DNA from: Candidatus Jacksonbacteria bacterium RIFOXYB2_FULL_44_15
GTDB lineage: Bacteria > Patescibacteriota > Patescibacteriia > UBA9629
DNA: 47,931 bases
Direction: 5' to 3'
NCBI GenBank assembly: GCA_001818235.1
Contig: MHJY01000025.1
Coordinates: 1-47,931 of the forward strand
Below, piece after piece: positions 10,477-15,787 of the stretch (its first letter is position 1; each line of letters begins with the position of its first letter). The notes below the pieces were generated by a model. That model had not been told where the DNA came from. It did not search any database and saw only the letters and a list, made by a program, of their open reading frames with translations. A program made the translations under genes and the position numbers.

Positions 10477-10553
10477 TGGTGGGTGCTCGAGGGCTCGAAC
10501 CCCGGACCTTCTCGGTGTAAACGAGACGCTCTAACCAGCTGAGCTAAGCACCC
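10477..10553 (-). tRNA. tRNA-Val (anticodon TAC), CCA encoded
   Basis: Hand-folded cloverleaf: acceptor GGGTGCT/AGCACCC, anticodon stem TCTCG/CGAGA, loop TTTACAC, T-arm CGGGG-TTCGAGC-CCTCG. Confidence 0.9.
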
Positions 10554-10666: not shown

Positions 10667-11002
10667 ATGCAAACTATCCTTCGCATTCTCCTAAGTGCCG
10701 TCGCCGTGTTTGTTACGGCCTATATTCTCCCGGGCGTCAAAATCGCCAATTTTTTGACTGCCATCGTGGCCGCGATATTTTTCGCCGTGGTCAACGCTTT
10801 TATTAAGCCAGTGCTCGTAATTTTGACTTTGCCGATCAATATTCTGACTCTCGGTTTTTTTACTTTGGTGATCAACGCGCTTTTAGTAATGCTGGTCGCG
10901 GCCATTGTACCGGGATTTGAAATCAGATCGTTTTGGTGGGCAATGCTCTATAGCGTGATTCTATCGATCGTCAGTTACGTTTTGAATACGACGTTTAAAT
11001 AA
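10667..11002 (+). CDS. phage-holin-family-IV / DUF360-type membrane protein
   Basis: 111 aa with 4 TM segments. The N-terminus MQTILRILLSAVAVFVTAYILPGV is typical of this family. Confidence 0.7.
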   Translation: MQTILRILLSAVAVFVTAYILPGVKIANFLTAIVAAIFFAVVNAFIKPVLVILTLPINILTLGFFTLVINALLVMLVAAIVPGFEIRSFWWAMLYSVILSIVSYVLNTTFK

Positions 11003-11543: not shown

Positions 11544-11822
11544 TTACAAATTTTCTTTCATCCAGCCAGTAACTTCTTTTGAAACATTAAATGTTGCCCA
11601 ACCTGTTTTTGTAACATCAACAACTAAAATCTTGTCATTGGAATCGATTTTTGCTTTTATCTCATCTCGCACTTGCGCTGATGTTTTGGTTGTTTTAATA
11701 AGCCAAACTGACTGTAGCGGTTTCGCCCAGCTTGAATATGATTTTATATACTGTATCAATAATTTGTAGTCTTCGTATGTTTCAGGTAAACCTAAATCAT
11801 ACGAAATAAGTAAAGTACTCAT
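11544..11822 (-). CDS. hypothetical small protein, Cas2/VapD-like ferredoxin-fold pattern (inference)
   Basis: 92 aa. The pattern LISYDL ... LQSVWLI ... ILVVDV resembles the beta-strand spacing of Cas2-like proteins. 2-nt gap to the upstream gene. Confidence 0.5.
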   Translation of the reverse strand: MSTLLISYDLGLPETYEDYKLLIQYIKSYSSWAKPLQSVWLIKTTKTSAQVRDEIKAKIDSNDKILVVDVTKTGWATFNVSKEVTGWMKENL

Positions 11823-11824
11823 AT

Positions 11825-12121
11825 TTATTCCCTGTTTGCTTTAAAATAATAACCAATGATGAAACCAAGAGGCCCCGAAAGAATACCGGAAATTGCAAGT
11901 AACATATCTCTGTGATCATCAACCGTAAAATGTTTCCATGTGCCAAGAAGTATGGCCCCAGCAATGATTGCAACATAAGCGACAACATAAATCAACGCGA
12001 TATGACTTCTCGTTTCTTCACGTTTTGAGTCCATTTGTTCACTATGTCCAAAAAATTGCCCTGACTGCCCAGAACCTGCCGGAGTCAGTTCATCAATTTC
12101 TTGTTTCTTTTTCCCTGCCAT
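11825..12121 (-). CDS. small 2-TM membrane protein
   Basis: 98 aa. A polar N-terminus is followed by two hydrophobic helices (IALIYVVAYVAIIAGAILLG and LLAISGILSGPLGFIIGYYF). Confidence 0.55.
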   Translation of the reverse strand: MAGKKKQEIDELTPAGSGQSGQFFGHSEQMDSKREETRSHIALIYVVAYVAIIAGAILLGTWKHFTVDDHRDMLLAISGILSGPLGFIIGYYFKANRE

Positions 12122-12125
12122 ATTT

Positions 12126-12386
12126 TTATAAATCGCGAATATTTATTGTTTCTCTTTTGCCGTCTTTAGTTTCTATAATAATTTTATCCTCACCAGCGTC
12201 TTTAACGGCATCAATTATTTTCATACCTTTAACTAAAATGTCGCCAAGTCTATCCTCAGATATAGATAAATAATTAGCAAGCTCTTTTAATTTTTTAAGA
12301 GCACCGTTGCCAAAACTTATGTCAAATCTTTCTTTTTCCACTGCAGATGTCTCGGAGGAGTTGTTTTCGGTTTGTTCTTCTGCCAT
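12126..12386 (-). CDS. hypothetical small acidic protein
   Basis: 86 aa. 4-nt gap to the downstream gene. No motif recognised. Confidence 0.5.
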   Translation of the reverse strand: MAEEQTENNSSETSAVEKERFDISFGNGALKKLKELANYLSISEDRLGDILVKGMKIIDAVKDAGEDKIIIETKDGKRETINIRDL

Positions 12387-12426
12387 AAATTAAAATTTAT
12401 ATTCTAAAAACATAACTAACACAAAA

Positions 12427-12954
12427 TTATTGTTCATTAACAAACTTACCCAAACCATTTTCTGATATTACAAACATTTGAGCGTTACGTAAATGCACTA
12501 AAGCAAAAAGCGGGCTTAATGATTTATCTCCGAGTAATTTTTGCACCAGTTTCCATAAAAATGATGGCTGTTCTTCTGGCCGAAGTCCATCAAATATCTG
12601 AATTAGTTCTTTTTGTCTATCTTCGTTAATTGACCAGATTGTTTTAAAACCATACTGAACTTTTGCATCGTTTAAAAGATAATGTCCTGCTAAACGATCC
12701 ATTGACCAAAAAAACCAAAAAACCAGCATTTGGTCAATTGAATCCAAAGTTTGTTCATCTATTTGCGCAAAGGCATTTAAAATTACACTGGTATTGGAAT
12801 CTGTTGATATTCCCTGATAAAATTGTCCAAGGTAAATTGGAATAATAGAAAAGAATGGATGCACCTTATCCAACTTTTGCATTAAAATTTTGTTTCTTGG
12901 TTTTGCAACATTTATTAATTTTAGATTCAATTTTGTTTTATCAAAAAATTTCAT
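12427..12954 (-). CDS. hypothetical protein
   Basis: 175-aa ORF in the AT-rich island. No motif recognised. Confidence 0.5.
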   Translation of the reverse strand: MKFFDKTKLNLKLINVAKPRNKILMQKLDKVHPFFSIIPIYLGQFYQGISTDSNTSVILNAFAQIDEQTLDSIDQMLVFWFFWSMDRLAGHYLLNDAKVQYGFKTIWSINEDRQKELIQIFDGLRPEEQPSFLWKLVQKLLGDKSLSPLFALVHLRNAQMFVISENGLGKFVNEQ

Positions 12955-13415
12955 AATTTTGTGGTTTATTTAAACAATTCATCAATGTTAACCTATACTA
13001 TGTAGGCGACTTTTTTAAAAGTTGCAAGCGTTTGGTTCTGATTTTTTGCCTGCTCCAATTTTAATAGTTGTATTAGTAGCTTTTCTTCTTTCAAGACGGC
13101 ACGGCTTCGCTTTAGCTCGGTCACGACGGGATTCCCTCCACGCCCTAGCTTCCGACGACGATTTTTTCAGGGACAATTGTCTTTTGTCTGTGGATAGTGT
13201 ATCATAGAAAGTGATATGAATTCTACTCCTCACCAAATTGTTAAAACTCGTAGAACCGAACACAGCAGAAAGGCGCAAGGGCACTCCGGGCGTGTTTTTG
13301 TTAATTTCAAAAAGGAAACAAAGGAAATAGAAATAGTTCAGGAATTGATCAGGCAAGACCAACTCACTAAACCAAACTCTGGCATAACAATTTCTGATAT
13401 AAACTACTATAAAAT

Positions 13416-14411
13416 TTAGAACGCAAATAGAAAATTTTGATTGTCAAAGAATAATTTCGACGCTTGTTGTTGAGGGTTACTATTTACCATAAGAAATAGC
13501 TCGGAGCGCAAATATATTTCCCAAAGAAGGTTCCATGTCGGATCTTCTTTTTGTAATGTTGTGATACCCAGTCCGAGACTTCCAGATTCGTCTGCACCAA
13601 TCATTCTACCGTGCACAAATCTTTTGTCAGCAGACGAGAGATTTTTTGCAATTATGTTGGCTGTTTGTTTGAGTTTTCTTGAATTCCAGCTTGGATTTTT
13701 AACTTTCAACATATACTGAGGTAGCCACTTTTTCACCAAATCGTTGGCAAAATTTATTTCCCTTTTACACTCCTCAATAAACGCTGGTTCAACAGTAGAT
13801 GAGGATAATTGTTGCAAATAGCCGATAAATTCTTTTTTCTCTGCCTTTGCTTTACTTAACTCTTTTAGTAAATTTTCTCTCGCGCTGATAAAAGATTGCG
13901 CAGATAATTGTTGCATAACACCACCGACATTTATAAATTTTTGAGCGTCTATTGGTCCAAGTTCTGAACAATAGCCCATCACGATACTATCTGCACCAAG
14001 CGCGATAATTGTCGCTGCACTTTTGGCCATGTTCGGAACAATCACTCGAAATTCTTTTGTCGTATATTTCCTGCACATCTCAACAATTTTCTCTGCGGTA
14101 ACACCAGAACCGCCGGGGCTATGTATCATGAAATCAAGATTTTCTACGGAACCACAATTCGCTAGCATACTTCCAATAGGAGCAATATCATCTGTGTTGA
14201 TAGCTGATTTTTGATTGCCGATTTTTGCTATGTAAACAATGAGTTTTCTTTTTTCTTTTTCTTCATATTGAGGAATAAGAATTTTGTGCTTCAAGATCAT
14301 TTCGGATTTAACCTTATCCGATTCTTGGCTAGCAATTCCAATCTCCTTCAAAACTTGTTGGAGTAGTGGCTCTTTCTGTATCTTTGCGGCAATGCTGTTT
14401 AGAGTGTCCAT
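13416..14411 (-). CDS. SDH-family (ClpP/S49-fold) serine protease
   Basis: LDFMIHSPGGSGVTAEKIV ... VIVPNMAKSAATIIALGADSIVMG..SELGPIDAQ matches the serine dehydrogenase proteinase (SDH_sah) core with its catalytic Ser. It also has a ~130-aa helical C-terminal extension. Confidence 0.82.
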   Translation of the reverse strand: MDTLNSIAAKIQKEPLLQQVLKEIGIASQESDKVKSEMILKHKILIPQYEEKEKRKLIVYIAKIGNQKSAINTDDIAPIGSMLANCGSVENLDFMIHSPGGSGVTAEKIVEMCRKYTTKEFRVIVPNMAKSAATIIALGADSIVMGYCSELGPIDAQKFINVGGVMQQLSAQSFISARENLLKELSKAKAEKKEFIGYLQQLSSSTVEPAFIEECKREINFANDLVKKWLPQYMLKVKNPSWNSRKLKQTANIIAKNLSSADKRFVHGRMIGADESGSLGLGITTLQKEDPTWNLLWEIYLRSELFLMVNSNPQQQASKLFFDNQNFLFAF

Positions 14412-14800
14412 ATTGTTATTACGCTACCTATTTTGTTTCCTAATCCGAGCGATTGTAAAACAGACCTTAAATCTGTGGCCACGTCTTTTTTGACAATAAT
14501 GTGAAATGGTACAGGTTGTCCTTGCAAAACTCCAGAAGACATTACCCGACTAGAAAAATCAATAAATTGTCCCTTTGATTTCTCACTATAAAAATCATCT
14601 GCCGTTTTGGCTTCCCCAATAATAATTAATCCGTTACTAGTTCTTGCAACTATATCAGGCTCATGCCGCCCAATAGCAGAAGGTCGAGTATATGTGCCAG
14701 AGTCGGCAGTTTCAATACTAAATCCCTCGGCAATAAATGCCTTCACGAGAGCGTCTACTAAATTATGATGCTCTTGGCTCGTCATAGTTTTACTTGACAT
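14399..14800 (-). CDS. PD-(D/E)xK nuclease-fold protein (Hjc/restriction-endonuclease-like)
   Basis: Motif HEPDIVARTSNGLIIIGEAKT (PD...ExK), preceded by an acidic helix. ATG at 14800 with GAGGT 9 nt upstream. The 3' end overlaps the protease start by 13 nt. Confidence 0.62.
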   Translation of the reverse strand: MSSKTMTSQEHHNLVDALVKAFIAEGFSIETADSGTYTRPSAIGRHEPDIVARTSNGLIIIGEAKTADDFYSEKSKGQFIDFSSRVMSSGVLQGQPVPFHIIVKKDVATDLRSVLQSLGLGNKIGSVITIWTL

Positions 14801-14850
14801 TTTTATCAACTACCTCGTAGCAAGCTGACGAGGTATAAAATGAATTACTA

Positions 14851-15132
14851 TCAGAATGATATGGTAACCGCGCAACAAGCTGTCGCGGAATCAGCAAGTT
14901 GAAATTCACTATTAGAAAATAGTTTGGTCGGTTGTTTGTTCAATCGCTTTTCTGCTACCCCAAAATACCTCACATCAATTTCAACGCCAATAAATTTTCT
15001 ATACAAATTACGCACGGAAACGCTGTTGAACCAACAGCCAATCGCGTGGTACAAATTCCTTTTTTCCCAGTCCGCCAAAGCACTATTTAATTCTTTCCGC
15101 CACGTCGCTCGCGAGTGCGAAGTTATTACGTG
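14851..15132 (-). pseudogene. C-terminal remnant of an N6/N4 DNA methyltransferase
   Basis: RKFIGVEIDVRYFGVAEKRLNK matches the conserved end of N6_N4_Mtase proteins (..GRkfiGiEid..Y...A.kRl). The position where DPFxGSGTT should sit reads YHAIGCWFNS (destroyed). No N-terminal catalytic half is present. Confidence 0.45.
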
Positions 15133-15226
15133 CCCGCCTACGCTAAAGCTACGGCGGACTAGCACTTCGCTATTCTGCTCGCTTCCGGACTGGCCGAAGG
15201 CCAGCCGAAGCTCGCAGAGCGAAAGC
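15120..15226. repeat. GC-rich mosaic element abutting the tRNA-Leu 3' end
   Basis: Contains cctacgctaaagctacggcgg and the hairpin ctggccgaaggccag. There is imperfect inverted similarity between cttcgctattctgctcgcttc and gaagctcgcagagcgaaagc. Confidence 0.5.
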
Positions 15227-15311
15227 TGGTGCCCTCGGTGGGACTCGAACCCACACGCCCACTGGGCCTAGGCCCTCAACCTAGTGCGTATACCAATTCC
15301 GCCACGAGGGC
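15227..15311 (-). tRNA. tRNA-Leu (anticodon GAG), CCA encoded
   Basis: Acceptor GCCCTCG/CGAGGGC, anticodon stem CTAGG/CCTAG, loop TTGAGGG, long variable arm, T-arm GTGGG-TTCGAGT-CCCAC. Confidence 0.9.
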
Positions 15312-15328
15312 AAAATGATTTTGTGATT

Positions 15329-15787
15329 TTATTTGATTTCTTTAAGCCGATTCACGCCTTCGCGTAAAAAGTACAACTTACTGCGCCGGGTTTTAAAAGT
15401 CTTGTCGATGACGATCCGCTCAACCAAAGGGCTGTAAAGAGGAAAAATCTTTTCCACGGCAACGCCGTCGCTTTCTTTGCGAACCATAATAGTCGCGCCC
15501 GGAGTGCTGCCGTGTTTGCGCGCCAGAACCATGCCTTTAAAAATTTGAATCCGTTGGCGCTCTTCGCCTTTGGGCGTCCTATCTAAAACCTTTTCATGAA
15601 CTTTAACTACCATGCCGGAGCGCACGCGCTCGCGATCATCAATCAACTGAGGCGCTACTGGCTCGTCAACTTTTTCCGATTCAGCTGATGGAACCGCGTC
15701 TTCGTTCGCGGCCGCGTCAACGCTCGCCTCTTCCGGCAAGTCCTCAGCTATCGATTTAAATTTTTTTTCTGATTTATCTGCGGTCAT
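15329..15787 (-). CDS. rplS: 50S ribosomal protein L19 with an acidic N-terminal extension
   Basis: The C-terminal ~110 aa are L19-like (RIQIFKGMVLARKHG, VEKIFPLYSPLVERI). The first ~45 aa are an Asp/Glu/Ala-rich extension. Confidence 0.9.
   Translation of the reverse strand: MTADKSEKKFKSIAEDLPEEASVDAAANEDAVPSAESEKVDEPVAPQLIDDRERVRSGMVVKVHEKVLDRTPKGEERQRIQIFKGMVLARKHGSTPGATIMVRKESDGVAVEKIFPLYSPLVERIVIDKTFKTRRSKLYFLREGVNRLKEIK

Follow-up and report, generated by a model that had tools for sequence, protein, structure and literature searches.

Bacteria of the candidate phyla radiation (CPR, Patescibacteria) are generally reported to rely mostly on restriction-modification (R-M) against phages and to be poor in CRISPR (clustered regularly interspaced short palindromic repeats), and accessory effectors linked to R-M systems are a known concept. 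Here we describe a locus that may hold such an accessory in Candidatus Jacksonbacteria bacterium RIFOXYB2_FULL_44_15, on contig MHJY01000025.1 (GenBank assembly GCA_001818235.1), analysed over positions 1 to 47,931; this whole stretch of 47,931 nucleotides (nt) is the window referred to below. The locus carries gene A, encoding a small protein with a predicted PD-(D/E)xK fold (14399–14800, minus strand), gene B, encoding a predicted SDH-type ClpP-fold serine protease of 331 amino acids (aa; 13416–14411, minus strand), and gene C, encoding a 67-aa protein and convergent to B (13216–13419, plus strand). An earlier note, made from the letters of the window, had described A and B as a two-gene module, and the third conserved gene, C, had gone unrecognised. 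We report the properties of the three genes, their place at the ends of R-M operons and the exchange of partners by A, and weigh what such a cassette may do.

Results

The open reading frame (ORF) of gene A gives 133 aa from the ATG at 14800 to the stop at 14399–14401, and inspection of the frame also offers an in-frame TTG at 14809 and a second ATG at 14785 as possible starts. Homologues of A are 126–135 aa long, mostly 128 aa (47/47 close homologues), and in the nearest relatives the alignment places the start at the equivalent of the ATG at 14785, with a TAA in place of the window's TCA after the first ATG. Hence the conserved product is probably the 128-aa protein that begins at 14785; the length of 133 aa in the earlier note holds for the ORF in the window but not for the homologues, which begin at the second ATG. 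Invariant across 20 homologues (46–92% identity) are H11, P48-D49, E63-A64-K65, D81-F82-S83, R85, H100 and W131. Searched exhaustively with the A profile, 1.84 billion representatives gave 432 clusters at E ≤1e-3, nearly all of them 120–140 aa long, and among the family representatives aligned to the profile the motif residues are kept in 126/126 (D49), 124/126 (P48), 106/126 (E63) and 77/126 (K65).

The AlphaFold2 model of A has a pLDDT (predicted local distance difference test) of 93, and its best Foldseek matches in the PDB are all PD-(D/E)xK nucleases (EndoMS/NucS, BstEII, 3dnx, Cdn1, MspJI and SfsA), with weak scores (E 6e-3 to 7e-2, TM 0.4–0.6). Both marks of the superfamily, the core fold and the D...(D/E)xK motif, are found in A, the structural matches being weak. 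The conserved D49 and ExK residues, together with a confident model that matches PD-(D/E)xK nucleases, support a nuclease fold with an intact and conserved predicted active site, in keeping with the compact restriction-endonuclease/Hjc-like core noted earlier. Reading A as Hjc, as an AHJR-like protein or as a member of any other named nuclease family is unsupported, similarity staying under every threshold: A scored 13.6 bits against the Pfam model REase_AHJR-like (PF18743; threshold 26.1), the family profile reached archaeal Hjc chains in the PDB at E 0.09–0.5 with PD and ExK aligned, and no NCBIfam family matched. Readings as YraN or Vsr were rejected as well. A is like Hjc, the NucS/EndoMS nuclease domain and the AHJR-like proteins in being a minimal single-domain PD-(D/E)xK fold of ~130 aa with its PD...(E)xK residues aligned to Hjc, but it has its own invariant motifs (H11, GRHEPD, DFSSR and W131) and an R-M or defence context instead of a recombination one. 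An A-type PD-(D/E)xK domain is also fused near the C-terminus of alpha/beta-hydrolase (palmitoyl-thioesterase-like) proteins of 941–1251 aa (P0198, P0280 and P0291), one of which has PKD domains; these fusions gave no clue to the function of A.

Gene B runs from the ATG at 14411 to the stop at 13416–13418. Its product exceeds the gathering score of the Pfam family SDH_protease (PF01972; 47.8 versus 31.3 bits), and the same family was found in 120/120 of the listed proteins among 1161 B homologues. S131 (AKSAAT), D155 (LGPIDAQ) and H267 (HGR) are invariant in 25 diverse homologues (42–91% identity) and, read from the sequence, follow one another along the chain in the order Ser, Asp, His; B appears to hold an intact putative catalytic set of Ser131, Asp155 and His267. 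With the AlphaFold2 model (pLDDT 89), Foldseek found the 1510-N/NfeD protease 3viv in the PDB at E 1.5e-5 and many ClpP chains at E ~1e-4 with a probability of 1.00. Both lines of evidence point to a predicted SDH-type ClpP-fold serine protease, as had been proposed for the 331-aa protein from its sequence. More specific models fit less well. B scores 54.7 bits against the NCBIfam equivalog NF047768 'SDH family Clp fold serine proteinase' (cut-off 250), 36.3 bits against the head-maturation model (cut-off 120) and 22.2 bits against SppA (cut-off 155), and the match to the ClpP model is likewise weaker than that to SDH. The Pfam and NCBIfam models align to B residues ~71–179 only. The helical C-terminal region of ~130 aa, taken for an extension in the earlier note, is real, but it is conserved family-wide with many invariant residues and carries the putative catalytic His267, which argues that it is an integral part of the subfamily and no add-on. 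Inspection by eye showed no membrane anchor in B. Compared with SDH_protease (PF01972, formerly DUF114) and the stomatin-specific 1510-N/NfeD protease, B shares the Pfam score, the ClpP/crotonase fold and the S-D-H order, whereas its helices at the N-terminus, its helical C-terminal domain and its partner C set the B subfamily apart. We know of no established function for the SDH_protease family.

A and B lie on the same strand, and the stop region of A overlaps the start of B by 13 nt (ATGGACACTCTAA; 14399–14411, minus strand; in the window ...ATATGGACACTCTAA), an overlap with the protease ATG that the earlier note had read correctly and that suggests translational coupling of the two genes. 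By ORF coordinates, the 13-nt overlap recurs in 22 related loci, with gaps of 1–6 nt in other clades and an overlap of 16 nt in L171 (L numbers are our handles for loci). Metagenome contigs scanned with the A profile gave 55 loci with A, and look-ups of two A homologues gave 7 more. In the window's A clade (46–92% A identity), B stands directly downstream of A in 31/31 loci; with L004, L005 (where A is frameshifted) and L171, the order A to B is found in 35 loci in total, comprising the window, 31 metagenome loci and three from genomes or assemblies. This order persists as A identity falls from 92% to ~46%, with at least 12 different contexts upstream of A.

Gene C runs towards B, and the two stop codons (13417–13419 for C and 13416–13418 for B) share 2 nt. 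Relatives of the window carry it at the same offset, as do Woesebacteria-type loci, the Nitrospirae locus L003, the loci embedded in type III operons and others, and public assemblies list it among their genes. Across eight close relatives, sites that vary concentrate at third codon positions (9/9/35 for positions 1/2/3), as expected of a protein-coding gene under purifying selection. When ORFs of 45–200 aa were counted, with other long genes of the same loci as controls, a convergent ORF ended no more than 40 nt from the B stop in 65/84 loci, compared with 56/233 (24%) for the controls; for low-GC loci only, the counts are 37/41 and 16/67. By relaxed blastp, the ORFs at the C position in 67/88 loci fall into three clusters of related sequences that have in common a basic N-terminus, a helix similar to NPE[VLM]xxVL[ED]IAxRAR and a short C-terminal tail, which reads N[YF]YK[IV] in the window's clade. 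A jackhmmer search from the window's C reached 22 loci only, and the wider relatedness of C rests on the relaxed clustering together with position and the control count. No Pfam family matched C. A promoter-like site (TTGTCT, 17 nt, TATCAT; 13177–13205, plus strand), from a consensus scan only, lies inside the conserved block and ends 11 nt before the C ATG. A sequence scan found no terminator-like site between B and C, so the two convergent transcripts should overlap. Judged by recurrence, it is C and not A that appears to be the regular companion of the protease across the B family.

The three genes share a common block with their relatives. Homology of the window to L088–L095 and L133 (blastn, 82–93% identity) ends at 14804 on one side and at ~13135–13175 on the other, and the flanks differ between loci. 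The block (13135–14804) holds A, B, C and ~80 nt upstream of C, and appears to be a unit that is inherited or moved together.

In most resolvable contexts, the genes directly upstream of A are R-M genes that share its strand and usually lie no more than a few bases away. The A-B-C cassette follows a TdeIII restriction enzyme and a methylase (L088, L089 and L092), a methylase and an HNH nuclease (L090 and L094), a methylase and a HincII-like protein (L095), an MjaI restriction enzyme (L099), type IIG proteins of 1008–1084 aa with N6_Mtase/Eco57I and Type_ISP_C or MmeI_Mtase (L004, L084–87, L105, L107 and L108), an N6_Mtase (L117) or a type III Res (L005 and L171); in L089 the order upstream is GmrSD, TdeIII-type restriction enzyme and N6_N4 methylase. 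By these gene orders, the cassette ends R-M operons of at least five kinds. B-C without A is found inside such operons, between Mod and Res (L008 and L172/173) and between HsdS and HsdR (L020). By our count a recognisable R-M gene is adjacent in 16/26 distinct A contexts, which is a lower bound since profile searches often miss type II restriction enzymes. Assuming that R-M systems account for a few per cent of genes, such adjacency would be far beyond chance. The surrounding islands carry AbiEii, Abi_C, an MNT-HepT pair, an RHH-PIN pair, GmrSD, DUF3800, PDDEXK_3 and Peptidase_M78. The candidate defence or abortive-infection module of the earlier note therefore keeps its defence-related (R-M) context, but as an appendage of R-M operons and not as a self-contained or free-standing two-gene pair.

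In the window the R-M system has decayed. A remnant of an N6_N4 DNA methylase gene lies upstream of A (14899–15123, minus strand) in two blocks: 14899–15042 corresponds to residues 197–244 of the L089 methylase (blastp, 65% identity, E 4e-18) and 15058–15123 to residues 40–61, with ~135 residues deleted between the blocks and the N-terminus missing. At the nucleotide level, the L088/L089 methylase gene matches the remnant at its 3' end with 80% identity. The L089 methylase itself is intact (Pfam N6_N4_Mtase) and is preceded by the TdeIII-type restriction enzyme, and it is the close relative through which the remnant was recognised, since six methylases compared with the region by tblastn gave no match. 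The dead methylase that the earlier note had placed beside the pair is thus borne out by an intact homologue. No restriction gene is present at the window locus, and A, B and C are full-length and 92–94% identical to their relatives; with the three genes intact beside a dead methylase and no restriction gene, the cassette has outlived its R-M system.

The decayed locus is bordered by a tRNA-Leu(GAG) gene (15227–15311, minus strand; ARAGORN and Rfam), in agreement with the tRNA-linked location noted before. Between the methylase remnant and A lies a window-specific segment of 94 nt (14805–14898, minus strand), which is absent from L088/L089 and from metatranscriptome contigs and has no second copy in the window or in 142 loci. 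It holds the hairpin that the earlier note had given as 7 bp with a Shine-Dalgarno sequence upstream of the first gene. The hairpin exists, with 8 bp at 14811–14835 and its GAGG 12 nt from the ATG at 14800 and 27 nt from the conserved ATG, but it is absent from relatives and its fold is not significant against shuffles (z = -1.84, 18/200 shuffles equally stable). A role as regulatory element was rejected, the hairpin being neither conserved nor more stable than shuffles. No credible repeats flank the cassette, and Rfam, run on the whole window and permissively on 12800–15350, returned tRNAs only. The G+C content at 11–15 kb is 0.32–0.41 compared with ~0.45.

The families are separable outside the window's lineage, and A is found with other partners. 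Fourteen of the A loci that lack B have a tightly coupled PIN-like protein of 192–214 aa directly after A. Its label rests on a sub-threshold Pfam match (18.8 versus 23.6 bits, covering 116/120 model positions) and a conserved acidic quartet, and the profile of this partner had no match among PDB sequences. The frame that holds the PIN-like protein begins upstream of the A stop in 12/14 loci and just after the stop in L128. At two of these junctions (L121, 700–712; L116, 588–600), ORF coordinates give the same 13-nt overlap as between A and B, and the downstream ORF of L121 opens with L-D-T at its first start codon where B has M-D-T. These two loci suggest that partner exchange took place just 3' of the A stop with the coupled start retained. 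Like A-B-C, the A-PIN pairs stand behind R-M genes, here methylase/CfrBI or methylase operons. In L135 the partner after A is a type IIG Eco57I/MmeI-like enzyme; on the Bradyrhizobium sp. 187 plasmid p187_1 (L167, 5034–6852), the gene behind a distantly related A (30% identity) encodes a DEAD/DEAH helicase; and in some loci A stands alone. The helicase pair in L167 faces three genes, for ATP-binding, radical SAM and DGQHR-domain proteins, and the whole group may be a defence island that has yet to be characterised. The co-occurrence and overlap expected of a fixed pair are strict in the window's A lineage, but B occurs mostly without A among its 80 best genome loci, and A swaps partners; linkage thus appears strict within one lineage, and the families modular.

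Other neighbours of B and of the cassette were seen on the way. A different small basic ORF lies upstream of B in 25 loci among L018–L070 (for example L055, 5610–5879; Acidobacteria and Solirubrobacterales), with the motif GRKGGxxGGKxR...TPxQRxxIAKKAAxARW and no Pfam family, and an IS1-like transposase ORF lies downstream of B in 18 Acidobacteria/Solirubrobacterales loci. A conserved G+C-rich stretch ~200–400 nt downstream of B (L081 and L097–L104) gives multi-frame pseudo-protein matches and may be a repeat or a structured element. In L081–83 the cassette sits in a serine-recombinase element and has no adjacent R-M system. L082 (118–8562; also L081, 4723–9552) shows two tandem large-serine-recombinase elements, each with ORFs of 172/173 and 179 aa of no known family and with different cargo, A-B-C in one and a 409-aa ORF in the other, which has the look of an integrative element that swaps cargo.

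No model of PADLOC-DB v2.0.0 matched A or B at E up to 1, in line with the earlier statement that the pair is unlike any named defence system. A had no relatives in 2.9 million viral contigs, and B had 24 matches there, mostly partial or below 41% identity. The plasmid collection gave only distant B matches (≤31% identity) and one distant A match, and on a P. aeruginosa plasmid a distant B stands next to an integrase and is followed by a convergent small ORF. Two groundwater metatranscriptome assemblies each have a contig spanning methylase-A-B-C of a ~92%-identical relative, with a word depth of 63–70, well above that of other contigs of the region.

The low-GC stretch of the window has further genes of its own. 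A 111-aa membrane protein (10667–11002, plus strand) matches PF04020 'Phage_holin_4_2' at E 6.5e-34 and lies just inside a tRNA-Val gene (10477–10553), at the opposite end of this stretch. Four consecutive ORFs of 92, 98, 86 and 175 aa without a Pfam family (11544–12954, minus strand) occupy its lowest-GC part (0.316 at 12–13 kb); none of the cassette's relatives has them, and they may be island cargo.

Discussion

The setting of the cassette recalls the PrrC paradigm, in which a latent toxic enzyme is silenced by an R-M system and freed when a phage blocks restriction; in EcoprrI, a phage anti-restriction peptide triggers release of the latent tRNase (PMC1484252, PMC2610378). As with the anticodon nucleases PrrC and RloC, which are linked to type I R-M systems, accessory genes stand in or attached to an R-M operon, and the placement of B-C between hsdS and hsdR (L020) or between mod and res (L008 and L172) mirrors that of prrC in the EcoprrI locus. 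The parts are different. PrrC is an ABC-ATPase fused to a tRNase and has no sequence or fold relation to A, B or C, which lack such domains, whereas here a serine protease is combined with a PD-(D/E)xK protein and a small convergent gene in a cassette that serves many R-M types and can stand alone.

Our tentatively preferred explanation, which we hold at somewhat less than even confidence, is that A-B-C is a mobile three-gene cassette at the ends of R-M operons and serves restriction immunity as an accessory of a second-line, abortive-infection or toxin-antitoxin-like kind. On this view the effector would be B, and C would be its dedicated small regulator, either an inhibitor or a preferred substrate; alternatively, C could act through convergent antisense transcription, given that the scan found no terminator between the two genes. 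For A, the role would be that of an exchangeable partner that acts on DNA, ahead of a potentially toxic enzyme, B or PIN. Because A-family members are also coupled to a PIN-like nuclease that takes the place of B in the operon, A may connect the toxic enzyme, be it protease or RNase, to the state of the DNA or of restriction, or may itself be a second effector. When restriction fails, or when a phage shuts down gene expression, control by C, and possibly by A, would lapse; released B would then cleave proteins of the host or the phage, A would cut DNA, and infection would be stopped with the loss of the cell. The same control logic would make the cassette addictive, which would explain its survival after decay of the R-M system. 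A more pointed proposal, possible in our view but doubtful, is that B-C, with or without A, constitutes a new protease-based immune effector pair that guards many R-M types, with C keeping an ATP-independent ClpP-fold protease latent and A coupling the toxic enzyme to DNA damage or to phage anti-restriction factors.

Several observations weigh against the proposed accessory cassette. The roles of sensor, effector and inhibitor are assigned to A, B and C only from gene order and partner swapping. The 31 A loci outside the window's clade (35–51% identity) are without B; of the 564 B hits in representative genomes, the best 80 were examined, and among these A was found only in L004 and L005 (L001 and L002 end at a contig edge), while the immediate large neighbours of B are ordinary genes in most of the 80, which are largely from Acidobacteria and Solirubrobacterales. 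The alignment of 25 B homologues shows no A-specific domain or feature, and two families that separate so readily may not interact. About 10/26 distinct A contexts have no recognisable R-M gene upstream, the neighbours being unannotatable ORFs, a trypsin-like peptidase (L096) or the serine-recombinase element. A literature search for PF01972, SDH protease, DUF114 or ClpP-like proteins with defence or restriction returned no relevant paper, and the metatranscriptome contigs suggest expression of a relative's cassette, DNA carry-over being possible and the strand unresolved.

The main rival, by analogy with ClpXP acting on HsdR, is that the cassette controls restriction itself, which we consider unlikely. 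B would degrade a restriction subunit or nuclease as a dedicated counterpart of ClpXP restriction alleviation and so ease the establishment of R-M systems or survival of DNA damage, with C and convergent transcription tuning the downstream R gene. In type IA and IB systems, ClpXP-dependent proteolysis of HsdR prevents self-restriction and protects unmodified host DNA (PMC12707154), and B likewise has a ClpP fold and is tied by genomic position to restriction enzymes. The position is suggestive: in type I and type III operons, hsdR or res comes immediately after B-C (L020, L008 and L172/173), and C is antisense to the operon at this hsdR- or res-proximal site. However, in type II operons the cassette stands after the restriction gene and not before it, and the R-M systems served have unrelated nucleases (TdeIII, MjaI, CfrBI, HNH and type IIG) with no evident common substrate. 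Control of restriction also fits poorly with a cassette that stays intact beside a dead R-M system, as in the window, or occurs without one (L081–83), and it leaves A and the swap to PIN unexplained. ClpXP is, moreover, a housekeeping ATP-dependent machine encoded elsewhere, whereas B belongs to the SDH branch, its gene lies in or behind the R-M operon, and the cassette offers it no ATPase partner.

Less probable again is a purely selfish addiction module of toxin-antitoxin-like kind, which would stabilise the R-M island or mobile element and have no anti-phage role. The layout, with a small upstream gene overlapping a larger enzyme gene, is that of type II toxin-antitoxin systems such as VapBC with its PIN toxins, and so is the mixing of partners, A being found with B or, in one branch, with the PIN-like protein, and B with A or with other small upstream ORFs. 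Survival after R-M decay and occurrence in serine-recombinase elements fit the same idea. Unlike those systems, A has no known antitoxin fold and keeps a predicted nuclease active site, B is no known toxin and C is convergent; no toxin or antitoxin family was matched by A, B or C in Pfam, or by A or B in NCBIfam and PADLOC. The systematic attachment to the 3' ends of R-M operons and the embedding in type I and III operons are more specific than a generic module would lead one to expect, and addiction and defence can both hold.

We give the same low standing to the view that A and B-C are independent accessory genes that share a landing site at R-M operon ends, their coupling being an accident of one lineage with no functional interaction. 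It draws on the points already raised, namely that the best 80 B genome loci mostly lack A, that B has no A-specific feature, and that A is also seen alone or beside PIN, a helicase or a type IIG enzyme. Against it, order and spacing of A and B (from a 16-nt overlap to a 6-nt gap) have held over the whole range of A identity and of upstream contexts given above, and A takes the same coupled position before PIN, in some loci with overlapping ORFs, which argues that A works with whatever follows it. Very improbable, and largely refuted by context, is a housekeeping or phage-morphogenesis origin as an Hjc- or YraN-type protein beside a head-maturation- or SppA-type protease: the similarities behind it are weak (A to Hjc at E 0.09; B to head-maturation and SppA proteins at 36 and 22 bits, far under the curated cut-offs of 120 and 155), none of the housekeeping resolvase, YraN, head-maturation or SppA matches named beforehand as refuting the earlier note was found above curated thresholds, the loci examined have no capsid, portal or terminase genes nearby, viral contigs hold no A relative and just the 24, mostly partial, B matches, and the patchy distribution with varying flanks is unlike that of a housekeeping gene.

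To our knowledge, no system described so far combines a PD-(D/E)xK protein with an SDH protease and a small convergent protein, with PIN as an exchange partner. The presence of the cassette on at least five mechanistic kinds of R-M system and its survival after R-M decay point to a general, uncharacterised accessory layer of restriction immunity, and for a large protease family (1161 proteins and 564 hits in representative genomes) C offers a handle on protease control. If the PrrC-like logic of the accessory cassette is true, it would provide a protease-based counterpart of a classic but isolated paradigm, together with a nuclease-fold adaptor for different toxic enzymes. If the B-C pair does guard R-M systems, it would amount to a widespread 'restriction back-up' principle, one that could matter greatly in CPR bacteria.

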